A DNA stretch of 32,000 nt, from the NCBI GenBank assembly GCA_031271785.1, contig JAISUZ010000076.1, forward strand, positions 1 to 32,000, read 5' to 3'. The position numbers were made by a program, and so were the translations under genes. The notes under the pieces are model-generated. The model was not told the origin of the DNA. It made no database searches and was given only the letters and a program-made list of their open reading frames with translations. How positions within the stretch are numbered: the stretch's first letter is position 1; every line of letters begins with the position of its first letter. Positions 1 through 32,000 of this stretch are shown piece after piece. Origin of the DNA: Fibrobacter sp. (lineage in GTDB: Bacteria > Fibrobacterota > Fibrobacteria > Fibrobacterales > Fibrobacteraceae).

Positions 1-650
1 AATCTTACACGCCGATTCGAACTTAACTTGTGTGCAAAATGGGAATGGGGCATAGGGAATAGATAATTCAGTCATTGAAATCACGAAGAACACATTCACC
101 GTTATCACGAGCCACGCAGCGGCGTGGTGATTCGGGGAGGAACAATCCGTGTTTGGATGGCCGCGAGCGATGCTCTCGCCATGACAGGAAAATGGACTGC
201 CGCGCCTTCGGCTCGCAGTGACGGAAACCGGTTTTTCCGCCCTAAAACCGGGTCGAAAATATTCGACCCCTGACATCATTATTGTCCTGTTCAAATCAAA
301 ATTAATATCATCGAATAATTGGAATTTTCGCCGTACCGATCCTGAAACTGTCATTCTGAACTTGTTTCAGAATCAGGATGTTTTGCGCATCAATGAAGTT
401 GTACTTTCATGTAAAGTTTTTCAAGTGTGCGCCGTCACTTGGTGGGGACAAATTTTCAGGCCGGAAGCCGCTCCAATTTGTCCCGAAGCGTTGAAACCGT
501 GCGAACATTGCGTGAGGCAGGCGGAGGGTGCGCGCTAACGCGCAGTACCGGATTTTTACTGCAAATTTTATGCAGGATTCTCGAAATATCCGGTACCGAC
601 CGGCGGGTAGCCCGTAGCCACGCCGACCCGGCGCGCCGGGGCACGCTAAC
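1..650 (-). repeat. Mosaic hairpin-dense non-coding element, copy E1. Orientation is defined by the W/core modules; it is probably truncated by the left window edge.
   Basis: No credible CDS. Shares these modules with 21039-21775: W-like (617-650, inverted), core (458-517), V (233-302), Y (166-186) and X (65-92). Shares module Z (408-424) with 26393-26410. Contains many perfect local stems, e.g. GGTCGAA-AATA-TTCGACC at 251-268 and GTACCGGAT...ATCCGGTAC at 546-597. Confidence 0.7.
65..92 (+). repeat. Module X, a 28-nt exact repeat (AATTCAGTCATTGAAATCACGAAGAACA)
   Basis: Identical 28/28 nt to 21525-21552 on the same strand. Confidence 0.9.
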
Positions 651-690
651 TAAAAACCCCACCGGACGGCGGTGGGGTGAGTTTTTATTT
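651..690. terminator. Rho-independent terminator of the RND operon; it reads as hairpin plus T-run on both strands
   Basis: CCCCACC (657-663), a 7-nt loop, then GGTGGGG (671-677). The flank is TTTTTA on the minus strand (656-651), 8 nt after the minus-strand stop at 685-687. The flank is GTTTTTATTT on the plus strand. Confidence 0.8.
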
Positions 691-3600
691 GGGGAATCGT
701 TTTACGATTTTTGAAGTCGCGGTTTTGAGTTTGTCCGTTTGCTTCTTCGCTTTGCTGAACAGCGCATTCGGGAGCCAGAAGAAAGTCGGAATCAAATACA
801 TGGTGAGAATGGCCGAAATCAAGAGCCCGCCGACCGAGGCGATACCCATCGGTTGTGTCATGGCGGCAACGCTCCCGCCGATACCGAGGGCAAGGGGTAT
901 TTGAGCAACGATCGCGGCAAACGTGGCAAGCAAAATCGGCTGGAATTTTATTTCAGCGGCTTTCAAAATGGCGGATCGGCGGCCTACATTCCCGGAACGG
1001 AAGCGGCGGTTGGCTTCATCGAGTAAGAGAATCGCGTTGTTCACCACCACACCGATGAGCATCACGATCGCCATAAATGCAATCATGGAAAGGCTCTTCC
1101 GGGTAATGACGAGGGAGAAAATCACCCCGATGGCACCCATCGGAATTGTGGTCAGGATAATGAAGGGCTGCGAGAACGATTCCAAGAGCGCCACCATCAA
1201 GATGTAAGTGAGGAGGATCGCCATAATGATCGCCGCGATAAATTCCGTGATCATGTCCTGCTGCATGTCGGCATTTCCGCCGAAAGCAAATTCCACACCG
1301 GGTGGCACGTTTTCAAAACTCGGAATGATTTTTCCGATTTCGCCCATGATTCCGCCCGTTGTGTAACCCGGAAGGAGGTTCATGCTTACTTCCACGAGCC
1401 GCTTTTTATACTTGCGCGTGAGCATGGTGGGGCCAAGCCGTGTTTCCACATCGTAAAGCGCCTGAATCGGCATATAACCTTTAGGCGTGAGAATCGGGAG
1501 GTTCAAAATGGCTTCGCGGTCGGCACGGTCTTCTTCGCGGAGGCGAATATAAATATCGTATTCCTCTCCGGCATCCGTGTAAGTGCTCGCTTGATAGCCG
1601 CTCACATAAAAGTAACCGATGTTCGCAATCGCCTGGGCGGTCATGCCGTAATCGGCGAGGGCGGCGCGGTTCGGGTGGAACACCATTTCCGGTTTTCCGG
1701 CTTCATAAGAAGATTTCACTTCCACAACTCCCGGAATTTTTCGGATGTAGCTGATGGCTATGTTGGCCGCTTTTGCGGCGGAATCACCGTCAAGGGAACG
1801 TACTTCAAGCACGACATCGCCTTCTTGCCCGTTGCCCATTTCCGAGGCGCTCGAACTTTTGATGGTAATGTAAGCATCGGGAATATCGGCAAGGACAACG
1901 CGGAGTGAATCCACAATTTGATCCGTTGTGCGCACGCGGCCTTCGTCTATTGATTTCAGCGAGAGTTTGACGGTTGCCTGATTGACGGCGGTCAAACCTT
2001 GATCTCCGCCGATAGAGGAATAGTAAAGTTTGAGTTCCGGAATTGTTTTTACCCGGGCTTCCACCGTTTTGGCGACACTGTCCGTCGTTTCGATGTTCGT
2101 TCCGCTCGGCATTTCAAGCGTGATGTTGATAAAACCTTCGTCGGTTTTAGGCATCATTTCTACGGTCATAAATTTTAAGGCCGTAAGGGCGGTGAGAATA
2201 ATCAAGGCGCCGACAATGAGAACCTGAACGATGGTTCCGACACGCGATAAACAGAATGCGAGGGATCTCAAATAAAGATTTTGAATGAACAGCAGTGTTT
2301 TCGGGAAAATATCGGCGATTTTCTTGAAAAGAGTCACCTTCGGTTTTACGGGCGTGCCGTCTTCATTCATTTTTTTGGCTTTGAAGAGGTAAGCCGCCAT
2401 GAGAGGTGTTAAGGTAAATGTGATGAGGAGCGAAACGAAAGTGGCGTAAACCATGGTAAGCCCGTAGCTTCTGAACATGATTCCCGCCACGGACTTCATG
2501 AATGCGATCGGCACAAACACGCAGACGTTCGTGAGGGTCGAGGCCATAATGGCGATCATAATTTCGCTGGTACCGACTAATGCCGCTTCTTTGGGTTTTA
2601 ACCCGCTTTCCAGTTTTACGGAAATATTTTCGAGGATCACGATGGAGTTTGTAACGAGAAGTCCCACCGCCGAAGAAAGCGCCATCAAAGTCATGATATT
2701 GATGGTGAATCCGCTGAAATACATGAAGGTAAAAGCTCCGACCACCGAAATCGGCATGGTGACCGCTGCAATAAACATGGTGCTGAACTTTCCGAGGAAG
2801 AGCAGGAGGATGATCGCCGTTAAGATAATGGCGAGGTAAATATTGCTGATCACGCCGTCCACCGATTGACGAATCATGTCGGAGCGGTCGTAAACGAGAT
2901 TGAGTTCATAACCTTCGGGAAGATCCTTATTGATACGCTCTACTGCTTTAAGCACACCGTCTGCCACTTGAACTACGTTAGCGTCGGTTCTCTTTTTGAT
3001 AGACATACCGATGGAATTGATTCCCTGGTAACGCGAGGTGGAAGTGATGGTTTTTACGGTGTCTTTCACGACGGCAATTTCACTCAGACGGATGCGCCCC
3101 GCGGAAGTCGGGATTTCGAGATTGCGGATTTCATCCAGCGACCGGAATTTGGAATCGGCGCGTACGCTCGTGTTTTTGATTTTTCCTTCCAAGTCGCCGA
3201 AAGGAAAACTGAGGTTTGCCGCCCCAATGAGCGACATGACGGTGGCGATATCCACATTCCGCGCTTGCAGGGCTTCTTTATTGAATTCAATGGAAATTTC
3301 GCGTTCCGTTCCGCCGAAAAGATCCACGCTCGCTACTCCCGACACCGCGGAGAGTTTCGGTTTCAGTACTTCGTCGGCCATTTGGCGGAGTTCCGTGGAA
3401 TTGGCTTGACCGACAAACGCAAGATCGACGATCGGCATTCCGTTAATATCGACTTTCTGAATAATGGCGTCTTCTACGGCGTCCGGGAAGTTGGTTTGAA
3501 CCTGCGCAATTTTATCGCGGACATCGTTTGCCGCCACATCCACATTAACGCCCATGTTAAACATGACCACGAAAATCGCATAGTTTTCCATGGCGTAGGC

Positions 3601-3837
3601 GAGAACGTAGTCGATGCCGTCAATCAGCTCGACCTGTTCTTCGACGGGTTTAATCACGGTGGATTCAAGTTCTTCCGGGCTTGCGCCCTGATAAATGACC
3701 GTGGCGGTCACCACCGGCACTTCAAACTTCGGCAGCATATCCACTGCCATCATGCGGTAGGTGTAAATACCGAAGACAACCACCGCAAGAATCACCATCA
3801 ACATGGTGATGGGTTTATAAATACTCGCTTTAATCAT
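685..3837 (-). CDS. RND-family (AcrB/HAE1-like) efflux permease
   Basis: 1050-aa ORF. The N-terminus MIKASIYKPITMLMVILAVVVFG... and the length and hydrophobic layout are typical of AcrB-type pumps. It is the last gene of an OMF-MFP-RND operon. Confidence 0.93.
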   Translation of the reverse strand: MIKASIYKPITMLMVILAVVVFGIYTYRMMAVDMLPKFEVPVVTATVIYQGASPEELESTVIKPVEEQVELIDGIDYVLAYAMENYAIFVVMFNMGVNVDVAANDVRDKIAQVQTNFPDAVEDAIIQKVDINGMPIVDLAFVGQANSTELRQMADEVLKPKLSAVSGVASVDLFGGTEREISIEFNKEALQARNVDIATVMSLIGAANLSFPFGDLEGKIKNTSVRADSKFRSLDEIRNLEIPTSAGRIRLSEIAVVKDTVKTITSTSRYQGINSIGMSIKKRTDANVVQVADGVLKAVERINKDLPEGYELNLVYDRSDMIRQSVDGVISNIYLAIILTAIILLLFLGKFSTMFIAAVTMPISVVGAFTFMYFSGFTINIMTLMALSSAVGLLVTNSIVILENISVKLESGLKPKEAALVGTSEIMIAIMASTLTNVCVFVPIAFMKSVAGIMFRSYGLTMVYATFVSLLITFTLTPLMAAYLFKAKKMNEDGTPVKPKVTLFKKIADIFPKTLLFIQNLYLRSLAFCLSRVGTIVQVLIVGALIILTALTALKFMTVEMMPKTDEGFINITLEMPSGTNIETTDSVAKTVEARVKTIPELKLYYSSIGGDQGLTAVNQATVKLSLKSIDEGRVRTTDQIVDSLRVVLADIPDAYITIKSSSASEMGNGQEGDVVLEVRSLDGDSAAKAANIAISYIRKIPGVVEVKSSYEAGKPEMVFHPNRAALADYGMTAQAIANIGYFYVSGYQASTYTDAGEEYDIYIRLREEDRADREAILNLPILTPKGYMPIQALYDVETRLGPTMLTRKYKKRLVEVSMNLLPGYTTGGIMGEIGKIIPSFENVPPGVEFAFGGNADMQQDMITEFIAAIIMAILLTYILMVALLESFSQPFIILTTIPMGAIGVIFSLVITRKSLSMIAFMAIVMLIGVVVNNAILLLDEANRRFRSGNVGRRSAILKAAEIKFQPILLATFAAIVAQIPLALGIGGSVAAMTQPMGIASVGGLLISAILTMYLIPTFFWLPNALFSKAKKQTDKLKTATSKIVKRFPK

Positions 3838-16777: not shown

Positions 16778-17008
16778 TTTTACCGGATATTCTATTTTCC
16801 CAAAAAATTATATACTTTCATTTATATGAATTGGTTTATTTTCTTTGTGAAAAATATTTTAGATTCCATACGGTGTCATGAATCAAGAGTGACGGAAGCA
16901 ATGAAAAAATCTCATGTAGATAAACCCGAAAGTTCATTTCAAATAATTTTTTCTTTTGTTTTATAAAACCGGAAATTAGTTTATAGACATATCTTTCAGA
17001 GGTAAAAA

Positions 17009-17920
17009 ATGGTTGAGGCGTTTTTAAGTTCATTGAATCGGGTTATTTTAGGAAAAGAGCATTCGGTTAAAATGCTTGTGGCGGCTCTATTCGCCGATGG
17101 GCATGTGCTGATTGAAGATGTTCCGGGCACCGGAAAAACAACGCTTGCGAAAGCGCTTGCGGTGGTGATGGATGCGAATTTTTCACGGATTCAATTTACG
17201 CCGGATTTGCTCCCTGCCGATGTGACGGGCGGCGCGGTTTACAGGCCGGGAACAGGGGAATTTGAAGTGCGGCAGGGTCCCGTTTTTACGCAATTATTGC
17301 TTGCCGATGAAATTAACCGCGCTTCTCCGCGAACGCAAAGCGCGCTCCTGGAGGCCATGGAAGAGCGGCAGGTTTCGCTGGAAGGGATTTCTCACGCGCT
17401 CCCCAAACCGTTTATGGTGCTTGCCACTCAAAATCCGGTAGAGTTTCATGGGGTATTTCCGCTTCCGGAAGCGCAAATGGACCGGTTTCTCGTTCGGATT
17501 TCCCTTGGATATCCGAGTTCCGAAACGGAACTTGATATTCTCCGCGCGCATCGCTTAAGCCGCCCGCTGGATTTGCTGAAACCGGTAACGACTCCCGATA
17601 AAGTAATTGAAATTCAGCAACGGGTACGCGAGATTCATGTAGAAGAATCGCTGGAACGTTACATAGTGAGTCTCGTGCAGGCTACGCGCGCGCATCATGC
17701 GTTCCGGCTTCCGGCGAGCCCGCGCGCGGGATATTCGCTGATGCGGGTTTCGCAGGCTCTCGCGTTTATGGCCGGCCGGGATTTTGTATCGCCCGACGAT
17801 ATTCAGGAAGCTCTCGTTCCGGTACTTGCTCACCGTATTTTCTTAAAAGAAGCGAACCTTGCCGGAGGAACGGAAAGAATACTTCTGGAAATTCAAAAAT
17901 CACTCCCGGTTCCGAAATAG
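17009..17920 (+). CDS. MoxR-family AAA+ ATPase
   Basis: Walker A EDVPGTGKTTLAKALA and Walker B LLADEINRASPRTQSALLEAMEE, with typical MoxR length. An AGAGG RBS lies upstream. Confidence 0.93.
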   Translation: MVEAFLSSLNRVILGKEHSVKMLVAALFADGHVLIEDVPGTGKTTLAKALAVVMDANFSRIQFTPDLLPADVTGGAVYRPGTGEFEVRQGPVFTQLLLADEINRASPRTQSALLEAMEERQVSLEGISHALPKPFMVLATQNPVEFHGVFPLPEAQMDRFLVRISLGYPSSETELDILRAHRLSRPLDLLKPVTTPDKVIEIQQRVREIHVEESLERYIVSLVQATRAHHAFRLPASPRAGYSLMRVSQALAFMAGRDFVSPDDIQEALVPVLAHRIFLKEANLAGGTERILLEIQKSLPVPK

Positions 17921-17929
17921 GGAGGGTGC

Positions 17930-19141
17930 TTGAAAGCATTTTTGCTTTGGTTTTGGGAAGCGATCCCCCGCACGCCGCGCCGTGACGGGATTTTGATCCG
18001 TATTTATTATTGGTGGACGGAAGCCTTTACGCCCGCGGGTAAAACGCTCTCCGCTCTCGCCTTATTTTCGCTTTTTGTGGTGGTGCTCCCCGGGTTTTCT
18101 CTCGCGGGATTCTTTCTGTGGGGAGCGGCGGCGCTCGCGCTCGTTTCTCTTTTTTTCCGCCGCCGGAAAGTGAAAGCCGTACCTCGGTTTTTCTCGGCGC
18201 ATTCCGTTACGGAAGGGGAGACTCTCACGCTGAAAGCGGGAATCCGTTCGGAAAAGAAATCACCGATGGTCGCGGGGCTCGGGATTTTTCGCACACCGGG
18301 TTCCCTTATTTTTGAAAATGAAATCCGGTGGCGTGTTTTACCGCCGTTTTCTTCGGAAACGCTTACCGCCGCACTGAAAACGTTGCGCCGCGGCTCCTTT
18401 GTGATTCACGGCGCGCGGTTTCTCGAACTTCAAAGCCTTGGTTTTTACCGGAGCCGCGGAAAGCCGCTCCCGCCTTTGGAACTTCTCGTTTTCCCGAAAG
18501 TTTCTCAGGTGTTTTCATTTCCGTTTTTGGTTCGCGGCGCAAGCGGGCGCGAATTCGCGCATCTCCTGAACCCGTCTCTTCAGAGAGGCATGGAATTTAT
18601 CGGCATTCGCGAATACCGGGAAGGCGATTCTCCGCGGGATTTACATGCGAGAGCTTTTGCGCGTTACTTGAAGCCGTTCACCAAAGAATTTGCGGTAGAG
18701 CGCGGTTCGGGAGTGATTTTACTTTTAGATGTCTCTTGCGAACATTTCCGGGAAAGGGCGTTTGTGGAAGATGTTATCCGGCTTTGCGCCGGGATTGGAC
18801 TCTGGCTCGAATCGAGAGGCGTATTCGGTCGTTTTTTTATCGGCAGCGAAGAAGTTTCGTTCCGCCATGTATCCGGTTCTTTTCATACGGAACTGCTTTC
18901 GGCGCTTGCCCGCATCCCTCAAGCCGGGCTTGGAAAATGGGAAACCCCGAAACCCTGGGCTCCCGAAGCGCGCCCCATGGGTCCCGTTCTCAGTATTTCT
19001 CTCCATGAGTTAGCCTCTCCGTTCATTACCAAACAAGTGATTGTTTCGGATACGGGAAAATCTTCGGATGAAAAACTTTTAGTACCGCCGGCGCTTTTAA
19101 AAGAAGTCTTTGCCGGAAAAAGAAAGGGGCTTGATTTATGA
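17930..19141 (+). CDS. DUF58-family protein (MoxR partner)
   Basis: N-terminal TM helices and the DUF58 core motif MEFIGIREYREGDSPRDLHARAFAR. The start is a TTG close after GGAGGG, so start certainty is moderate. Confidence 0.82.
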   Translation: MKAFLLWFWEAIPRTPRRDGILIRIYYWWTEAFTPAGKTLSALALFSLFVVVLPGFSLAGFFLWGAAALALVSLFFRRRKVKAVPRFFSAHSVTEGETLTLKAGIRSEKKSPMVAGLGIFRTPGSLIFENEIRWRVLPPFSSETLTAALKTLRRGSFVIHGARFLELQSLGFYRSRGKPLPPLELLVFPKVSQVFSFPFLVRGASGREFAHLLNPSLQRGMEFIGIREYREGDSPRDLHARAFARYLKPFTKEFAVERGSGVILLLDVSCEHFRERAFVEDVIRLCAGIGLWLESRGVFGRFFIGSEEVSFRHVSGSFHTELLSALARIPQAGLGKWETPKPWAPEARPMGPVLSISLHELASPFITKQVIVSDTGKSSDEKLLVPPALLKEVFAGKRKGLDL

Positions 19142-21009
19142 ATCGAAGCACGCTCCTTTTGGTGTTACTTTCCATCGCTTGCGTTTGGAACCAATCCCGG
19201 GTGCATTTGCTTGCGTTCCTTTCGGTTTTTGCGGCGTTTTTTATCTACCGGAAAGTTAAGCAAAATAAAACGGTTGTTCTTAAAAAGTTTCTTCTGTATT
19301 TAGGCGTAATTCCGTTTGCGCTTTGGTGGACGTTTTCACCCGAGGTGGAATCCGGAATTTCTCCGTGGCTCTTCTTTATTCCGGCGTGGTTCTTTATTTT
19401 CCTTTCCCTGATGCAATGGAGAAGTTTAAAACGCGGCGGATATCTTGTTTTTGTACAGTGGAATGCACTTTCGGCTTGTATTGTTTCCCTCAAATCTTTT
19501 GACCGCGTTTCAATAATTCTCGCCCTCGCGGCGTTTGCCGTTTTTTTATGGAGCGTTCGTGCGCCCGGCTCTCCGATTCGCTGGGGTATAAATTTTGCGG
19601 TATTTTTAGCGGTGACCGCTTTACTCGGGGCAGGGACGCTTGGGTTCCGGCACGTTTACCGCGGGAGTTCCCCGCAAAAAAATTGGGGTGAAGATTATTA
19701 TGAAAAAAGAAATTTAACGGGTTTTAACGCCGTTTCGCAGCTCGGCAGCTTTGAATCCAATTTTTTATCGAAGTACAACGAACAGGTGGTGCTTCGGTTA
19801 TGGACAAAAAAAGCGCCGTATTACATGCGCGCCATTGCGTATGAACGTTACATTCCGGGAATCGGTTTATGGAAAAAACCGGATGCCGCTCAAATGCTTT
19901 ATCCCGGCGTTTATTATTTGAACTACGCCACTTTCGGCAGCGATTCGCTCCCTGAGGGTGAACCGGTTTGGGTACAATCCGCTTTGAATCAGGAATTTCT
20001 TTTTCTCCCGGCAGGGGCGTCTCTGACTGCGGTTCAGGCCGATTCGCTCGCGCTTTATACGGGCGGCGCCATTTCAAACCCGCGGCAGAAAGACTGGTTT
20101 TACTGGGATAGGGGAACTCCCATTCAAAACGAAACGGCCGATTCTTTAATCTGGCTTCAAATTCCCGATAAATTAGGAGAATTTCTGACCGGGGTCTCTT
20201 CCGAAATGGGGCTGGATTCACTTGAAAATCCGGCGCTTATTGCCAAAACCATTAAAAATTATCTTCAGAAAAACTTTGAATATTCCTTAACGCTCCCCAT
20301 GAAAAAAGGGAGAAACCGGGACGAACCGCTTTACACCTTCTGGAATTACAAAAAAGGTTATTGCGATTATTACGCGACCCTTGCCGCGCTTCTCCTGCGG
20401 TATCGCGGTGTGGAAGCGCGCTATGTAAACGGTTTCGCGCAGCCGGAGATACTCGGCGATTATGCGGTATTCCGCCGGAAACACGCGCATACCTGGGTGG
20501 AATATAAAGATTCTTCGAAATGGATTATTTTCGACCCGACTCCCGCCATAGACCGCGAATTGGAAATCACCGGTTTTTGGAACCGGAATCAGGAACAGCT
20601 GAACGCTAAAATCGCTTACCTTTTTCACCAACTCAAAGAAGGTGCCTGGCGTAAAAAAGTCGATGAATGGCAGGTTTACACCGAACGCGTCACGTCGAGC
20701 CGGGCGTTTATTCCCGTGTTGCTCATGATTCTTGCGACTTTGTCTGGTGTTCGCTTGGCGCTCGGGAGAAAAAGACGGAAAAAGCAAACGATCGCTTTTT
20801 CGGAACATATTCGCCGCCTTCAGGCAAAACTGAACCTTGCCGAACGCGGACTTGTTCGCCTCGGATTTAAGCGGGAAACCGGAGAAACCGCCGGGCATTT
20901 TCTATCGCGCCTTCCGCCGGAAACTGAAATTCCGGAAAAAAAACGCCGGATTTACCGCGAATATCTTAAAAATATCCGGGAATATGAAGCATCGCGTTGG
21001 ACTTTTTAG
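19138..21009 (+). CDS. Transglutaminase-like membrane protein
   Basis: Multiple N-terminal TM segments. A transglutaminase-core Cys-His-Asp is present: KGYCDYYATL, HAHTWVEY and IFDPT. ATGA overlap with DUF58 at 19138-19141. Confidence 0.88.
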   Translation: MNRSTLLLVLLSIACVWNQSRVHLLAFLSVFAAFFIYRKVKQNKTVVLKKFLLYLGVIPFALWWTFSPEVESGISPWLFFIPAWFFIFLSLMQWRSLKRGGYLVFVQWNALSACIVSLKSFDRVSIILALAAFAVFLWSVRAPGSPIRWGINFAVFLAVTALLGAGTLGFRHVYRGSSPQKNWGEDYYEKRNLTGFNAVSQLGSFESNFLSKYNEQVVLRLWTKKAPYYMRAIAYERYIPGIGLWKKPDAAQMLYPGVYYLNYATFGSDSLPEGEPVWVQSALNQEFLFLPAGASLTAVQADSLALYTGGAISNPRQKDWFYWDRGTPIQNETADSLIWLQIPDKLGEFLTGVSSEMGLDSLENPALIAKTIKNYLQKNFEYSLTLPMKKGRNRDEPLYTFWNYKKGYCDYYATLAALLLRYRGVEARYVNGFAQPEILGDYAVFRRKHAHTWVEYKDSSKWIIFDPTPAIDRELEITGFWNRNQEQLNAKIAYLFHQLKEGAWRKKVDEWQVYTERVTSSRAFIPVLLMILATLSGVRLALGRKRRKKQTIAFSEHIRRLQAKLNLAERGLVRLGFKRETGETAGHFLSRLPPETEIPEKKRRIYREYLKNIREYEASRWTF

Positions 21010-21317
21010 AACGATTTTCAGCTCTGCGGGTTTCTTTTTTTGGGCGTGCCCCGGCGCGGAGCGCCGGGTCGGGCTGTATTGCACTAAGGCGGGAAACCCG
21101 CCGAGTGCAACGGAGCCGCGCTTACCGGTCGTTTCGGGCAAGTTACTCGCACGTCTCCGCCTTTCGGGTCACCATCCCTCACGCACTTTCGCGCAGTTCC
21201 AACGCTTCGGGACAAATGGGAGCGGCTTCCGGCCTAAAGGTTTTGAAAAAAGTATTGAGAACCGCGCTTTGCGGTAAAAAATGGTTACCGAGTTCCTCGG
21301 GAATTGCAAACAGGGAA

Positions 21318-21500
21318 AATAAGTATCATCGCAGACGAAGAAAGTCTTACATGCCGGATTGCTCTATGACAATGCGATAATAAGTATCACCGCAGATTTG
21401 AAAAGTCTTACAAAACCTAGCGAACTAAACCGATGCGGTAATAAGTATCACCGCAGATTAGGAACGTTTTTCATGCCGGATTTGTCATGGCGAGAGCATC
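21318..21500 (+). repeat. Three degenerate tandem 61-nt repeat units (R-A, R-B, R-C)
   Basis: AATAAGTATCA[T/C]CGCAGA starts at 21318, 21379 and 21440, an exact 61-nt period. The motifs GAAAGTCTTACA and CATGCCGGATT recur within the units. Confidence 0.85.
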
Positions 21501-21524
21501 GCTTGTGAGAATGCATAAATGGAG

Positions 21525-21552
21525 AATTCAGTCATTGAAATCACGAAGAACA
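21525..21552 (+). repeat. Module X, the second copy of the 28-nt exact repeat
   Basis: Identical 28/28 nt to 65-92. Confidence 0.9.
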
Positions 21553-21879
21553 TACCATCGTCACCCCGGACAAGCATAACAAAAAATCCGATTGTTTAAT
21601 GACATCCATTTTGATTTAAACACGGCAATAACGATGGCAGGGGTCCAATATTATGTGGCAGGGATGCGACCCGAACGGGCGGAGATCCCGCAGGGAACTC
21701 CGTTCCGGGAGGCGGTTTTACCGCCCCCGGAATGCGAGCCCGGTCCCGGAATAAAATGGAGGGAGCCACCCGTAAAAACAGAGAATGTATCTTTTTGAAA
21801 CGTTTTTCATCTGTTGAAACCCTGGAAATAATAGTATTTTTTTGGCAAGATTTTTGCTTAATTCAAAGTGAGGTAAAAA

Positions 21880-24420
21880 GTGTCCGATTATAATAACGAT
21901 AGTGAAAAAATTTTAGTGAAAGCTCAGGAATTGATGGACAGAAGTTCTCATTCCTATTTAGGCGTAGTTCATCTCGCCGTCGCGCTGCTTGAAAATCCGG
22001 ATGCGCGGCTTAAAAATCTTTATAAAGCAAAAAATTTGAAAACCAAAGAAACGCGGGCTTTGCTCGTTCCTTTTTTGGATGCCGTTCCGAAAGTTTCCGG
22101 AGTGAATCCCGATAGCCGCGCCGATAACGACCTTTCGCGGGTGTTGCGGGCGGCGGTGCAAGCGGCGAGACAAACGTCCAGAACGGCTTCTCCCGGCGAC
22201 CTTTTGGTAAGCCTCATGCGGTTTGCGGAAAACCGGCGTTTAGTGAAAATTTTTGAAGATAAATTAGGCTCGGCAGAAGTCGTGGAAACCTGGCTTTCCG
22301 ACCCGATGAGCGCGGCGGCTGTTGCCGATGAGCAGTCTCCGTTAAAACTTTACGGCCGTGAGCTCGTGAGTCTCAGCGCCGAAGGTAAATTGGATCCGGT
22401 GATCGGGCGCGAAGAAGAAATCCGCCGCGTAATCCTGATTCTATCGCGTAAAACGAAAAATAACCCGGTGCTCGTCGGGGAACCCGGCGTGGGAAAAACC
22501 GCCATTGTGGAAGGCCTTGCCGAACGCATTCACCGCGGCGACGTTCCGGACGCGCTCAAAGGCAAAAAGTTATTTGCGCTGGATCTTTCCGCGTTGATTG
22601 CCGGAGCGAAATACCGCGGCGATTTTGAAGAACGCATGAAAGCAGTACTCGAAGCTCTCGAAGAAGACGGAAATACGCTTCTTTTTATCGATGAACTCCA
22701 CACCATTGTCGGCGCAGGGAAAACCGAAGGAAGCATGGATCTCGGGAATATGTTAAAACCGCGCCTCGCCCGCGGCGAACTTCACTGCATCGGCGCTACC
22801 ACTACGCAGGAATACCGGAAATACATTGAAAAAGATTCCGCGCTCGAACGGCGGTTTCAGCCGGTGAGCGTTTTTGAACCTTCCGAAGAAGAAGCGCTCT
22901 CCATTCTGCGCGGTATCAAAGAAGGCTTTGAATCTCATCACGGCGTACGGTTGCATGATAACGCGCTCGTGGCGGCGGTAAAACTTTCGAGCCGCTATAT
23001 TGCCGACCGGTTCCTGCCGGATAAAGCGATCGACTTGATGGATGAAGCGGCGAGTATGGTGAAAACGCAGCTCGATACGGTGCCGGAAACCCTCGATAAC
23101 TTGCAGCGCCGCGAACTCCAAATGAAAATCGAAGAACAGGCGCTCTCCAAAGAAACGGATGCGCACAGCAAACGCCGTCTGGAAGAGCTTCGGAAAGAAC
23201 TCACCCTGACATCGGCGGCGGTTTCGGAAATGCAGGCGCGCTGGCAGGAACAGCGGGCAAAATTTGCGGAATTGCACGAGCTGAAACAGAAATTGCGCGG
23301 GGCCAAAGAAGAAATGGAACAGGCCGAAGCGCGCTATGACTTAAACCGGGCGGCGGAACTTAAATACAATACGATTGTCGAACTTGAAAAAGAAATCCGG
23401 GCTAAAGAAGAAAAAATCAATCAGGATACCGCGACCGGCGAACTCACGCAAGAAGTGAATGAAGAAACCATTTCGCTTGTGGTCAGCCGTTGGACAGGCA
23501 TCCCGGTCACGCGCCTCCGCGAAGGAGAACGGGACAAACTGCTTCATTTGGACGAACGCCTGCATGAACGCGTCATCGGGCAGGATCAAGCGGTAGAAGC
23601 GGTATCGGAAGCGATTCTCCGGAACCGAAGCGGACTTTCGCGCGAAAATGCGCCCATCGGGAGTTTCCTTTTCCTTGGGCCCACCGGGGTAGGGAAAACC
23701 GAACTCGCCCGCGCGCTCGCTACGGAACTTTTCGACAGCGAACACGCCATGATTCGTTTGGATATGAGCGAATACATGGAAAAACACAGCGTCTCGCGCT
23801 TGATCGGCGCGCCTCCGGGATACGTCGGTTACGAAGAAGGCGGTCAGTTAACCGAAGCCGTACGCACACACCCTTACAGCGTGGTACTTCTCGATGAAGT
23901 TGAAAAAGCGCACCCCGATGTCTTCAACGCCCTCCTCCAAGTGCTTGACGACGGCCGGCTCACAGACGGAAAAGGGCGCGTTGTGAACTTTAAAAACACG
24001 CTCGTACTCATGACTTCCAACATCGGCGCCCATCATTTCGAAGGAAACAAAGATGTGACCGTAGAAGAACTCATGCCCGAACTCCGCCGGTTCTTCCGTC
24101 CGGAATTTTTGAACCGTCTGGATGAAGTGCTTGTGTTCCACTCGTTGAAGAAAGAAGAAATTTTTGAGATCACCCGCCTGAAATTTGCAGCGCTCGCCGG
24201 GCGCGCCGCGCGGCAAGGGTACCTGGTATCGGCCACCGACGCGGCATTGAAAGCGGTCAGCGAACAATCTTTCGACCCGCAGTTCGGCGCCCGCCCGATT
24301 CAAAGATTCCTGCAAAAAGAAGTCGAGCGCGTTTTGTCTCACGCGATTTTGTCGGGACAAGTAAAACCCGATGTTCCGGTGAAGATCGACTACGCCGGCG
24401 GAAAATTTGTGATCGCTTAA
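21880..24420 (+). CDS. clpB: Chaperone disaggregase ClpB (AAA+ with two nucleotide-binding domains)
   Basis: 846 aa. NBD1 Walker A is [15 protein letters not shown] and NBD2 Walker A is [16 protein letters not shown] long coiled-coil M-domain lies between them. The start is GTG with a GAGGT RBS. Confidence 0.96.
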
Positions 24421-25103
24421 AACTCGATGATTCCGTCCGGAGTGGCGAGAATCACGCGGTCGGCCATGCCGACAAAAAGTCCGTGCCCGAGCAGTCCCGG
24501 GATGTGTTCCAAATTCCGGGCGAGGGTTTCCGGGTCTTTGATGCCGTCAAAAAAAGCATCGGCGATGAGGTTGCCCGAGTCGCTGATGACGGGACCGTCT
24601 TTTCCGGGCGCGCCTTGGCGTACTTTGACTTTAGCGCCGAGGGCTTCGACTTTTGCGGTCACAAGCCCGATGGCGTTCGGGAGGATTTCCAATGGGACGG
24701 CGAATTTTTTTCCGAGTTCGGAAACTTTTTTTCTGTCGTCGGCGATGATGATGTAAGTGTCCGCCATGGCGGCGACGATTTTTTCAAGCAGGTGGGCTGC
24801 GCCGCGCCCTTTGATTAAGTTTCGTTTGCCGTCGATTTCATCGGCGCCGTCGATCGCAATGTCAAGGTGCGAGGCTTCTCCCATTTCCATAAGCGGAATG
24901 CCGAGTTTCCGGCAGAGAAGCGTGGTGCTCCAACTGGTGCTTACGGCTTTGATTTCAAGATTTTCGTTTTGAATGCGTTCCGCAAGCCGTTCGATCATAA
25001 ACGTGGCGGTACTTCCCGTGCCGAGCCCCACATTCATTCCCGATTTGATTTTATCTGCCGCGCGCTCACCGGCGAGTTTTTTAAGCTCATCCATCGTTTT
25101 CAT
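24417..25103 (-). CDS. rpiA: Ribose-5-phosphate isomerase A
   Basis: RpiA signatures are present: GLGTGSTA, IDGADE, KGRGAA. I prefer the ATG at 25103 (MKTMDELKK...). The ORF-track start is the TTG at 25109. Confidence 0.93.
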   Translation of the reverse strand: MKTMDELKKLAGERAADKIKSGMNVGLGTGSTATFMIERLAERIQNENLEIKAVSTSWSTTLLCRKLGIPLMEMGEASHLDIAIDGADEIDGKRNLIKGRGAAHLLEKIVAAMADTYIIIADDRKKVSELGKKFAVPLEILPNAIGLVTAKVEALGAKVKVRQGAPGKDGPVISDSGNLIADAFFDGIKDPETLARNLEHIPGLLGHGLFVGMADRVILATPDGIIEF

Positions 25104-25705
25104 TACCAAAATCTCCCGTTCTTGGAGTCTTCGTCAAAATCGTCGTCTTCGGTGTCGCCTTCGCCGAGTATTTCTTCGGGGAGTCCCATTTCCTGTTCGA
25201 TAAGGGAAATCGGCTGAATGTCGAGAACCGAAACTTCAAAAGTCAAATCCATACCGGCAAACGGATGGTTGCCGTCGAGCAAAACCGTGTCGGGACGGAT
25301 TTCCCGGATGGTGTAAAAATGATTGCCTTCGTCGAGAGAATTGTCTCCGTAAATTTCGCGCGGGTCTTCGGGAATATGGATTTCGGGAAAATCAATATCT
25401 TCCTGATCTGCTTCGATTTCCATGCCGATCCAAATTTCGCCGAGGCTTTTTAAATCTTCTTTCGGGATTTCGATCATCAGGTTTTTCCGGTAAGGGCCGT
25501 AACCTTTTTCGGATTTTACCGTGACGCTGAATTGATCTCCTATTGATTTCCCTTCGAGCGCTTCTTCGAGTCCGGAGATGATATTCTGAAAACCATGCAG
25601 ATAAACGAGCGGAAATGATTCGAAGACCTCTTCAATCACATTTCCGCTTGTATTTTTGATCGCGTAGGCAATGCTTACTTTTGTATTTTTTGAGACAATA
25701 TCCAT
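25103..25705 (-). CDS. FKBP-type peptidyl-prolyl cis-trans isomerase (SlyD-like)
   Basis: SlyD-like N-terminus: KVSIAYAIKN...LVYLHGFQNIISGLEEALEGKSIGDQFSVTV. An insert-in-flap-like region and an acidic C-terminal tail are present. Confidence 0.85.
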   Translation of the reverse strand: MDIVSKNTKVSIAYAIKNTSGNVIEEVFESFPLVYLHGFQNIISGLEEALEGKSIGDQFSVTVKSEKGYGPYRKNLMIEIPKEDLKSLGEIWIGMEIEADQEDIDFPEIHIPEDPREIYGDNSLDEGNHFYTIREIRPDTVLLDGNHPFAGMDLTFEVSVLDIQPISLIEQEMGLPEEILGEGDTEDDDFDEDSKNGRFW

Positions 25706-25737
25706 TATCCTACAATATAGAAAAGGAGTTTCGCCGC

Positions 25738-26190
25738 GTGAAGAAAAGAATCTTATTTGTCTGTCTGGGTAATATCTGCCGCTCTCCGGCGGCGGAAGGA
25801 ATTGCCCGTAAACTGATTCGGGAGCGCGGTTTGGATTATTTTACGGATTCCGCCGGGACCGGGGACTGGCACACGGGAGAAGCGCCTCACTCCGAAATGC
25901 GGCGTGTCGCTACCGAACGCGGGTTTCCCATTGACGATTTGCGGGCGCGGCAAGTGAAGTCGAAAGATTTTTTTGATTTCGATGTGATTCTTGCGATGGA
26001 TCACCAAAACCTGCGTGACCTGGAACGTTTGAAAAAACAGGCGCGAGGAACGGCCGATGTGCGTTTGCTGTGCAGTGACGGCACGGATATTCCCGACCCT
26101 TATTACGGCGGCGCGGATGGCTTTTACCGGTGTTTCGATATGATCCGCGAAGGCGTGGAAGAGTTTCTTTCCGAAGTGGTTCGGGAATAA
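25738..26190 (+). CDS. Low-molecular-weight protein-tyrosine phosphatase
   Basis: Active-site loop LFVCLGNICRSP (CX5R-S) and a DP motif near the C-terminus. I chose the GTG at 25738, 9 nt after AAAAGGAG. The ORF-track start at 25681 would overlap the divergent slyD-like gene. Confidence 0.9.
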   Translation: MKKRILFVCLGNICRSPAAEGIARKLIRERGLDYFTDSAGTGDWHTGEAPHSEMRRVATERGFPIDDLRARQVKSKDFFDFDVILAMDHQNLRDLERLKKQARGTADVRLLCSDGTDIPDPYYGGADGFYRCFDMIREGVEEFLSEVVRE

Positions 26191-26192
26191 GA

Positions 26193-26598
26193 TTTGGGCA
26201 TGCCCCGGCGCGTTCCTGTTCCGCGTGCATAAAAATCGCGCCGGGTCGGGCCGTATTGCACTAAGGCGGGTTCTTTGCCAAGTGCAACGGAGCCGCGCGG
26301 AATATTCTCTGAAAACGGAAATGAAATAGAAAATAGGGAATTGGAAATGGATGACTCGGGAACAATTTGTACATCGACATAGACCGTGCTTGCATGTAAA
26401 GCTTTTTCAATGAGCATCGCATTCCCTGATTTCCATATCCGAAGAACCGGATTTGAGGGGGTAGCGGAATAAGTATCGCCGCAGATTTGGAAAGTCTTAC
26501 ATGAAATCGCGAACTCAACTGATGCGGCCAAAACGGCGCGCAGAACCCGGCGACCGCCGGAAGCCGATATTGGTTCTGCGGCATACGCCGGTTGAAGT
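26193..26598 (+). repeat. Mosaic hairpin-dense non-coding element, copy E3
   Basis: Module W at 26193-26298 starts 3 nt after the phosphatase stop. Module Z is at 26393-26410. One R unit at 26468-26528 is followed by a decayed second unit. Nine-bp arms CGCAGAACC/GGTTCTGCG lie at 26539-26547 and 26572-26580. Confidence 0.7.
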
Positions 26599-26629
26599 GA
26601 GGGGGATACTCCCCCTCCTTTATTCTTTT
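26599..26629 (+). terminator. Intrinsic terminator-like hairpin at the 3' end of element E3
   Basis: GAGGGGGA-TAC-TCCCCCTC (8-bp GC-rich stem, 26599-26617) is followed by CTTTATTCTTTT. The reverse strand has no T-run. Confidence 0.65.
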
Positions 26630-26674
26630 GCAATCCGTACCGCGACTCTTTGTCCATAATTCTATATTAGTTTC

Positions 26675-30842: not shown

Positions 30843-30965
30843 GTGTACGATATTAATTACATATTACATATTATTTAATTTATTTATCTTCTTTAGACGT
30901 TATTTGTAGTTAAATCCTTCTTTAAATTTCTGGCTTAATCCCTGGTGTTTTATTATATTTTTCCT

Positions 30966-32000
30966 GTGAAATTACTCCTCTTTTTCATGCTTGTTTTAGC
31001 CTTGCTTTCCTGTTCCGAGTTTAAACCGGAAGACTGGAGTAATGTTTTGGGTGAAGCCGGTTCCAGTTCGGTCGGCGGAGATTTTTCCAGCGAAGCCGAA
31101 ATATCTTCTTCAAGTGTTTTTTCAAGCTCTTCCTTTACCCAGTCAGGTCAGGATTTATCATCTTCAAATATGCCGGAGGAAAGCAGTTCCTCGGCAAACG
31201 GTTCCGGTAGTTCTTCTTCGGCTGAAAACGCCTCTAGTTCATCCTCAGTAACGGACAACAGCTCTTCTTCTGCCGTAACATCTTCAAGCAGTTCAAGTGC
31301 CCGGAGTTCTTCCAGCGTACCTGTTTCATCAAGCGCTTGTGCAGGTCCGGTCGATTGTTACGGCAAGTTAAAAACAAACGGCAAAAATATTGTGAGTTCA
31401 AAAACGAATCAGCTTGTGCAAATACGCGGTGTGAGTCTTTCGGGAGTGCTAGATTTTTATAATAAAACTGTCGTGCAAGCCATGGCGGAAGATTGGAAAG
31501 CAGAAGTGATCCGTGTAACAACACATACCTATAATAATAATATTGTACCTCCTGAACCAATCGTGACACAGGTAATTGATGAAGCCATAAGTAGAGGGAT
31601 ATATGTCATTATCACTTGGGCTCCTGAAAAAACAGGTGACATCAATGTAGATGCAGCAAAAACATTTTTTGCCCCGATGGTTAAAAAATACGGTAGAGAA
31701 GATCACGTGATTTTTGAAATTCTCGACGGTTCCCTGAATAATAATTGGATGAATATAAAAAATTATGCCAACGAGGTTATTTCATACATTCGTGCCGGTT
31801 CGGATAATCTTATTTTAGTGGGGACATCACATTCAAATCAAGGTGTCTATGAGGTAATAAATAACAAGATTACTGCTTATGAAAATGTGGCGTATGTCTT
31901 GCAATTTACAGCGGATGTAACACCGGATATGATCGCACCGCCCGATTGGTCGCGTCCTTTTAGGGTCGTAATAGAACAAGTACTCCAAAATAATATTCCC
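30966..32000 (+). CDS. GH5 (cellulase-family)-like lipoprotein with a Ser-rich linker; 3' end lies outside the window
   Basis: This ORF is absent from the supplied track because it has no stop in the window. The GTG at 30966 gives MKLLLFFMLVLALLSCSE, a lipoprotein signal with a lipobox Cys. A roughly 90-aa Ser-rich linker follows. The GH5-like core then reads LVQIRGVSLSG...FYNKTVVQAMAEDWKAEVIRV...GIYVIITW...HVIFEILDGS...LILVGTS...NVAYVLQFTA. Confidence 0.8.
   Translation, partial: MKLLLFFMLVLALLSCSEFKPEDWSNVLGEAGSSSVGGDFSSEAEISSSSVFSSSSFTQSGQDLSSSNMPEESSSSANGSGSSSSAENASSSSSVTDNSSSSAVTSSSSSSARSSSSVPVSSSACAGPVDCYGKLKTNGKNIVSSKTNQLVQIRGVSLSGVLDFYNKTVVQAMAEDWKAEVIRVTTHTYNNNIVPPEPIVTQVIDEAISRGIYVIITWAPEKTGDINVDAAKTFFAPMVKKYGREDHVIFEILDGSLNNNWMNIKNYANEVISYIRAGSDNLILVGTSHSNQGVYEVINNKITAYENVAYVLQFTADVTPDMIAPPDWSRPFRVVIEQVLQNNIP

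Follow-up and report, generated by a model that had tools for sequence, protein, structure and literature searches.

Gene-free islands in an uncultured Fibrobacter lineage as probable nests of short hairpin repeat families spread by insertion

The 32,000-nt stretch of DNA analysed here (hereafter the window; contig JAISUZ010000076.1) is from a metagenome-assembled genome (MAG) of Fibrobacter sp. The genes flanking its gene-free islands are of housekeeping type, namely an RND efflux operon, alaS and a MoxR/DUF58/transglutaminase operon, further genes being clpB, rpiA, an FKBP gene and those for a low-molecular-weight phosphatase, a metallophosphoesterase and a SPOUT methyltransferase, with an Opp-type transporter and a GH5 cellulase making up the remainder. 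Island A (1–684) lies downstream of the RND pump gene (685–3837, minus strand) and extends past the window start, island B (21010–21879) separates the transglutaminase-like gene from clpB, and island C (26191–26674) comprises an insertion proper (26191–26659), which begins past the stop codon of the phosphatase gene, and the native spacer of the metallophosphoesterase gene. The first-pass annotation of this DNA, made from the letters alone, had proposed that the three islands share hairpin-dense modules of an undescribed family, either of structured RNAs or of repeats resembling bacterial interspersed mosaic elements (BIMEs) or transposable elements of the miniature inverted-repeat type (MITEs). 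The common modules were borne out far beyond chance and at or near the positions first given, with blastn E-values of 2e-8 to 2e-15 for module pairs between islands. With all related loci as the database, shared repeats covered 48% of island A, 70% of island B and 52% of island C, and no nucleotide of the 30 kb outside the islands. Taken together, our results suggest that the islands are probably nests of several short non-coding hairpin repeat families, whose units inserted into intergenic DNA, and also into each other, as they spread through a single uncultured Fibrobacter lineage.

The modules recur densely in a related assembly, QMCE01 (GCA_003324335.1), whose proteins are 85–89% identical to their window counterparts. 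The loci of it named below are L002, L115, L116 (contig QMCE01002241.1), L117, L120, L125 and L133, together with two relatives for the phosphatase and metallophosphoesterase genes (L134 and L135) and two Logan contigs of the same strain as the window (L001 and L003).

The module termed R is 61–62 bp long and reads 5'-AATARGTATC-ACCGCA, followed by approximately 39 conserved nucleotides and TGCGGT-3'. In island B, it forms a head-to-tail array on the plus strand (21318–21482) of two complete units (21318–21378 and 21379–21439) and a truncated third (21440–21482), and island C holds a further unit at 26468–26529 (plus), which confirmed the repeats first noted at 21318–21500 and 26468–26528 and put their starts at 21318, 21379 and 21440 (61-nt spacing) and at 26468. 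Three more copies were found using nhmmer: the 3' part of a unit cut by the window start (1–33, plus; E=1.3e-4), an inverted unit in island A (386–440, minus; E=1.5e-9) and an inverted, degraded one in island C (26372–26416, minus; E=8e-6). The last two contain the sequences at 408–424 and 26393–26410 that had been set apart as a module Z, which does not survive as a separate module.

The two ends of the R unit pair with each other (alignment columns 15–20 with 62–67), with 91% of cells paired and double changes at four of the six pairs; position 16/66, for instance, is C-G in 14 copies, G-C in 11 and U-A in one. The score of this closing stem was reached by none of 500 shuffles, and every slid register collapsed. 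Within arrays, pairing inside the unit was better than pairing across the junction in five of nine cases, equal in three and worse in one, and this preference for its own half indicates that the R unit is the evolving entity; a hairpin formed at the junction of adjacent units was rejected as the selected structure for the same reason. Units within one array are non-identical, come from different subfamilies and have their own covarying ends, which favours serial insertion over slippage. On inspection, R resembles the H hairpin described below, with a CCGCA/TGCGG stem and its loop swapped for the conserved 39-nt segment. Two other identities considered for R were rejected. The core motifs of hammerhead or other small ribozymes misfit, with no Rfam ribozyme match at E≤10, and the consensus ends lack the R'' (RYYYAAC) and R' (GTTRRRY) core sites of an integron attC, with no integrase near the islands.

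Insertion of R as a discrete block was observed. At L116:5719–5779, a 61-nt R unit lies inside a gene of the Rpn/YhgA family (PD-(D/E)XK, 'putative transposase'). The interrupted open reading frame (ORF) matches profile positions 54–104 only of TIGR01784 (24 bits), and excision of the 61 nt fuses two frames into a 288-aa protein matching positions 54–272 of 273 (51 bits). In L120, one site is filled with R (1386–1446) and another is empty (3445) in the same repeat context with identical boundaries; likewise, R fills the window site at 26468–26529 and is lacking from the paralogous copy of that site in L125 (6002/6003). At these three sites the insert begins AATA and has AA next to its 3' end, giving AA on both flanks, and the gene site in L116 has AATATG on both sides of R.

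Insertion of a whole island was seen for island C. A spacer of 18 nt (TTCTATATTAATCAACTC; L134:3334–3351) separates the phosphatase gene from the metallophosphoesterase gene in L134 and L135. A spacer of the L134 type survives in the window at 26660–26674 (plus), outside the repeat; the stop codon of the phosphatase gene is 469 nt away from it, and each junction has ATAA. One relative has the phosphatase, metallophosphoesterase and SPOUT methyltransferase genes in a contiguous row, which island C splits in the window. A check of the flanks for target-site duplications and terminal inverted repeats (TIRs) yielded AA or ATAA, and no TIR was definable for islands B and C; the AA and AATATG at R sites and the ATAA at island C could be a 2–4-bp duplication or a target preference. 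The insert carries module T (26530–26630, plus), a multi-stem unit closing with an intrinsic-terminator-like hairpin (26599–26617) and a T-rich tail. This hairpin now stands 45 nt upstream of the following gene, whose distance to its upstream neighbour was formerly 18 nt. Genes downstream of island C would need read-through or a new promoter.

The orthologous islands of QMCE01, after the transglutaminase gene in L002 and after the phosphatase gene in L133, have one module each in common with islands B and C, and that module is in another position or orientation, with flanking genes 85% and 89% identical at the nucleotide level from end to end. Split alignments among paralogous copies revealed further discrete inserts: a double-hairpin unit of 110 nt, a core of 77 nt, a 348-nt insert within an R unit and, between R units, blocks of 35–138 nt. 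The units are nested in one another. Two half-hairpins in island B, at 21483–21503 and 21560–21572 (both plus), are truncation products. Gene order between the window and QMCE01 also shifts exactly at the islands (L002 and L133 compared with window 16778–21879 and 24417–26674): downstream of the transglutaminase gene the window has clpB and QMCE01 has sodB (reverse strand), and downstream of the phosphatase gene the window has the phosphoesterase gene and QMCE01 has ybeY/corC. The repeats may mediate such rearrangements.

QMCE01 also carries a 283-bp 'G-element' (L117:83–365) with perfect TIRs of 14–16 bp (GGGCGTGTTCACAT) and TA on both flanks (5/5 ends), which looks like a MITE of the IS630/mariner type. 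It contains two inverted R units, has other ends at L002:144 and L115:6243 and a similar start at L002:5846, and is absent from the window; the start of module W shares GGGCGTG with it.

Module W, which the first-pass annotation had placed in all three islands, is part of a module of approximately 150 nt, named WM (W-plus-mid). The claimed copies stand: 21061–21121 matches 26238–26298 (87%), 623–655 is an inverted match to 21035–21067 (76%), the hairpin pattern occurs at exactly these three places and at none in 100 shuffles, and both stems fold as described. A diverged inverted copy with its neighbouring sequence had been overlooked at 21650–21800. The window thus holds a variant 2 WM in island A (507–655, minus; W end toward the RND gene; E=5e-33 with the mid2 hidden Markov model), a left copy in island B (21036–21185, plus; W hairpins at 21050–21068 and 21079–21110; W end toward the transglutaminase stop codon), the diverged right copy of the same island ('U', minus; W-type end toward clpB, 80 nt upstream of its start codon) and, in island C, the W part with an enlarged first hairpin (26193–26307, plus), beginning 3 nt past the stop codon. 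The left and right copies, inverted with respect to each other, form the bounds of island B.

W had been described as sitting directly 3' of a stop codon in the orientation of that gene. Five W ends fit, lying in sense 3–35 nt past the stop codon (window genes for the RND pump, the transglutaminase and the phosphatase; L115 3726–4718; L120 1722–3167), but four face the start of a downstream gene: three of these precede the start codons of clpB in the window and of two L133 genes by approximately 80–150 nt, and the fourth is the one nearer the tgt start in L125, a start whose position is approximate. WM is an outer-edge module of the islands with W pointing outward, and not specifically an element 3' of stop codons. 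At the RND gene, a canonical intrinsic terminator of that gene (656–678, minus) stands between its stop codon and W. This terminator (ACCCCACCG-CCGTC-CGGTGGGGT followed by TTTTT) can be read on the plus strand as a bidirectional hairpin. WM may form the end of a composite element, or it may have colonised the sites early and received later units by nesting.

Seven of eight copies fold the second WM hairpin (−10 to −23 kcal/mol), its stem being built from four sequences unrelated to one another, and the first W hairpin varies through apex extensions of 0 to approximately 80 nt. In two L120 copies (1600–1700 and 3690–3790), a palindromic repeat beginning CAATTACGAAT is inserted at this apex; it occurs elsewhere in QMCE01 (L002:6000–6130 and L133:1960–2190) and was not found in the window. 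A long-range stem closing the whole of W, suggested by the minimum free energy fold, was rejected since the alignments showed that it is not kept in other copies. The independent Logan contigs of this strain break off at window positions 590 and 21089, within W or next to it. Repeats are expected to interrupt an assembly graph in this way, and the breaks are consistent with further near-identical copies of W elsewhere in the genome.

The core is a self-complementary foldback of approximately 100 nt with compensatory changes in its upper stem, present at 21177–21280 (plus; apex GGAGCGGCTTCC) and, as a repeat match to island B, at 443–517 (minus). The pairing first reported was confirmed between 450–517 and the reverse complement of 21177–21243 (87% over 68 nt, E=2e-15), and a repeat search aligned 450–505 with 21188–21243 at 88%. 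Module T, of approximately 100 nt, has 31 predicted pairs, of which eight are compensatory among four copies. The H hairpins, with the plan GTCAY-stem-CTTGA-stem-RTCCAA, keep their flanks and loop around at least nine different perfect stems; island A has one at 349–376 (plus; GTCATTCTGAA-CTTGT-TTCAGAATC), and the half at 21560–21572 (GTCACCCCGGAC) is of the same type. Perfect hairpins with a TTGA or TTGT loop numbered 17, compared with 2.05 in shuffles, and approximately 13 of them are members of the H family. The reverse complement of the H loop (NTCAAGN) resembles a tRNA T-loop; ARAGORN found no tRNA-like gene in the window, and tRNA genes lie near repeat islands at L117:4426–4499 and L133:5367–5439. 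Three smaller modules were likewise confirmed between islands A and B. X is present at 58–92 and 21518–21552 (both plus, direct, 94%). Y is a complete hairpin at 146–186 (minus) matching the reverse complement of 21483–21523, its first 21 nt identical, and by sequence comparison half of this hairpin alone is present in island B. For V, the pair is real but its coordinates had been off by approximately 26 nt, the best fit being 21582–21652 (plus) with the reverse complement of 258–328 (minus; 80%). The compensatory changes in the stems that close or build the units indicate that the hairpins are under selection.

Such changes also raise a reading that we regard as unlikely, in which the modules are primarily functional structured RNAs, such as multi-copy small RNA (sRNA) genes or elements of 3' untranslated regions and leaders, and their dispersal is secondary; R plus T would then be an sRNA with its own terminator, and W a stabiliser of mRNA 3' ends. 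In T, WM and R, conserved loops do top stems with compensatory changes, the terminator-like hairpin of T has G-U pairs on the given strand only, the second WM hairpin in L120 has its G-U wobbles on the W-first strand, the five W ends just past stop codons are in sense, and island B folds better than its shuffles (z=−3.3, 20 shuffles). Against this, no Rfam family matched, island contents differ at orthologous loci, R arrays run sense or antisense to the flanking genes, the four W-type ends facing gene starts are antisense, and one R unit disrupts a gene. Furthermore, terminator-like sites followed R arrays in 6/29 cases compared with 3/29 in the control by a simple scan, which left a regular association unconfirmed, and the counts of G-T and A-C in the R stem (7 compared with 3) are a weak asymmetry with no clear strand preference. 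Since compensatory changes are equally expected for hairpins in single-stranded DNA, the structured-RNA half of the initial proposal was not demonstrated, whereas its BIME/MITE-like half held: the modules are dispersed, lineage-restricted and nested, have empty orthologous or paralogous sites and interrupt a gene. An RNA role is compatible with mobility.

We thus return to inserted repeat families as the probable explanation. The families are undescribed and of the REP (repetitive extragenic palindromic)/BIME/MITE kind, and as far as could be tested neither Rfam nor the literature describes them. The H hairpins are short palindromes with conserved flanks that cluster with other motifs in intergenic DNA, as in REP/BIME, and the repeats show the insertion polymorphism and the absence of coding capacity of classical MITEs, the four island ORFs scanned having no Pfam match, on which ground a protein-coding explanation, already doubted in the first-pass annotation, was rejected.

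We propose that the units are non-autonomous and would be mobilised in trans by an enzyme acting on folded single strands, possibly of the HUH type, such as a REP-associated tyrosine transposase (RAYT) or an IS200/IS605 TnpA. The RAYT and IS200/IS605-type HUH transposase families are the general background from which this link between anatomy and enzyme is drawn: head-to-tail arrays, dependence on hairpins, a fixed short target and the lack of both long TIRs and a clear duplication point to an HUH-type rather than a DDE-type enzyme. R inserts as a discrete block next to AA, and its 5' end (AATARG) resembles the target (AA[A/T]A...), so that each insert may serve as a new target; this mimicry would account for the arrays of non-identical units with a 61-nt period. 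Effects on host genes would be a by-product, as where island C appears to have delivered a terminator between formerly adjacent operon genes.

Several points weigh against this interpretation. No transposase or RAYT gene was found in the 114 kb of lineage DNA searchable for a mobilising enzyme, where tblastn with weak queries (approximate sequences of IS200 TnpA and E. coli RAYT) gave nothing below E=0.4. R has neither long TIRs nor a clear target-site duplication, its inverted repeat being 5–6 bp only, subterminal at the 5' end and covarying in sequence between copies, and R thus misfits a classical DDE-type MITE. The families are carried by two assemblies only, which implies few events and related copies, and the figure of several hundred R copies per genome is extrapolated from 11 units in 51 kb, not counted, to an assumed 3–4 Mb. 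Finally, the conserved 39-nt interior of R, the T loops above covarying stems and the terminator-like ends also fit transcribed RNAs.

A reading that we think quite improbable takes these features further. R and its relatives would then be a new class of 61-bp stem-closed elements with site-specific insertion beside a target mimicking their own 5' end, serial self-targeting that builds the arrays, and neither terminal repeats nor duplication, or else transcribed mobile cassettes of structured sRNAs and terminators that rewire operons. On this reading, the H hairpins, with loop and flanks kept over at least nine perfect stems, would point to a templated making of new palindromes.

The distribution of the modules bears on whether they form a family at all. 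An iterated nhmmer model counted 40 copies of R in approximately 100 kb of the window and QMCE01 loci, with two more in L133; the three loci chosen without regard to R (the window, L002 and L133; 51 kb) hold 11 units. Several QMCE01 contigs have further copies of core, WM and T, whereas V and X were seen only within the window, and a scan of a metagenome collection with the R pattern found true copies on eight QMCE01 contigs only, five other matches being due to chance. None of the modules occurs in the 73 kb surrounding the orthologous operon of Fibrobacter relatives with 37–42% protein identity or in 6.4 kb of a relative at 66% identity, and there the same genes overlap or stand 18–31 nt apart. 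The R model gave no match in 858 kb of L004–L114, which served as a negative control; a plasmid collection had no blastn match to island B; and viral contigs gave chance matches of R in coding DNA only and none of the core. A genome-collection scan with the GC-rich W hairpin pattern TGCCCCGGCGCG..CCGGGTCGG gave, among the matches listed, only chance sites in high-GC genomes. Rfam release 15 had no match to the window at the gathering cut-off, only chance-level matches to the islands (E 0.8–9, 11–19 bits compared with cut-offs of 44–61) and tRNAs only in 82 kb of QMCE01 loci. Literature searches turned up nothing relevant on Fibrobacter repeats, the peptide-like read-through 'KQVQHD' or QMCE01.

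It is very improbable that no element family exists and that islands A, B and C are mere debris of segmental duplication and rearrangement confined to these 32 kb. Islands A and B do have five modules in common in broadly similar order, and X and V are confined to the window, but the same modules occur on at least nine QMCE01 contigs beside unrelated genes, module order and orientation vary between islands, and there are filled/empty sites and a unit inside a gene, so that this reading is already contradicted. That the three head-to-tail units of island B with their 61-nt period are a processed RNA array of the CRISPR or ToxI kind is scarcely credible, because the whole unit is conserved between units and loci and leaves no unique spacers, R also occurs singly and inverted, no Rfam CRISPR repeat matched, no cas or toxin gene was present among the 22 window genes scanned with Pfam (six nearest islands B and C and 16 others; the RND pump gene was outside the scan), and the island-flanking genes are those of the transglutaminase-like protein, ClpB, the phosphatase and the phosphoesterase, with arrays beside many unrelated genes.

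The RND pump gene has a precomputed match of the collection to PF00873 (ACR_tran), and there is no transposase in the window. At its far end (30843–32000) the window has a low-GC (38%) stretch and then a gene running off the end, with a Ser-rich linker and a GH5 cellulase domain; with no repeat modules, this region is not a fourth island.

The islands add the phylum Fibrobacterota and families novel in sequence to the short list of bacteria with dense intergenic mosaic repeats. In this lineage, the repeats break assemblies, coincide with synteny breaks between the two assemblies, disrupt at least one gene and split an operon via a terminator-like hairpin, and masking is needed when these MAGs are annotated or their intergenic regions screened for riboswitches and sRNAs. 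R, with its clean filled/empty sites, is a tractable handle on the mobilising enzyme.

Several known systems resemble the islands in part. The REP/BIME clusters of E. coli and other proteobacteria, which as REPINs are mobilised by RAYTs, likewise have short palindromic units with conserved flanks (H in the present case) and form intergenic mosaics with other short motifs, often just past stop codons, with no long TIRs, no clear target-site duplication and possible effects on termination and mRNA ends; the core module resembles the foldback doublets of REPINs. However, there is no relationship in sequence, the 114 kb searched showed no RAYT gene, the H stems vary completely while loop and flanks are kept, R units run head-to-tail rather than in alternating orientation, and there are at least eight module types of up to approximately 150 nt.

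The HUH derivatives, namely the palindrome-associated transposable elements (PATEs) of IS200/IS605 and the tandem inserts of IS91/Helitron-like elements, share with R the site-specific insertion at a short target, the lack of TIRs or a clear duplication, hairpin dependence and a tendency to head-to-tail arrays. In contrast, R has a single stem made from both ends instead of separate left- and right-end hairpins, and at 61 bp is shorter than known PATEs; no TnpA was found in the DNA searched, and the link is drawn from anatomy only.

The neisserial intergenic mosaic elements (NIMEs), in which RS units are flanked by dRS3, and the Correia elements are similar in that islands are built from a pool of 50–150-nt units and short hairpin repeats are interspersed in variable order at gene boundaries and synteny breaks. 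They differ in phylum and in sequence; no fixed 20-mer like dRS3 stands between all units of the Fibrobacter islands, and the 26-bp TIR and TA duplication of Correia elements are absent from the window modules, the QMCE01 G-element alone being similar. Pneumococcal BOX elements (boxA, variable boxB and boxC) share a tandem short middle unit (45 nt for boxB and 61 nt for R), no coding capacity, strong predicted hairpins and an intergenic location. In contrast to boxB, R units are non-identical subfamily members with their own covarying ends, and the modules flanking the arrays are not fixed; the likeness described is one of architecture. Because the sequences are unrelated and R has neither the long TIRs nor a clear fixed duplication as in classical MITEs, membership in any of these systems is not claimed, and REP/BIME clusters, NIMEs with Correia elements, and BOX, likewise mosaic, hairpin-rich, intergenic and mobile, are the closest analogues of the Fibrobacter islands.

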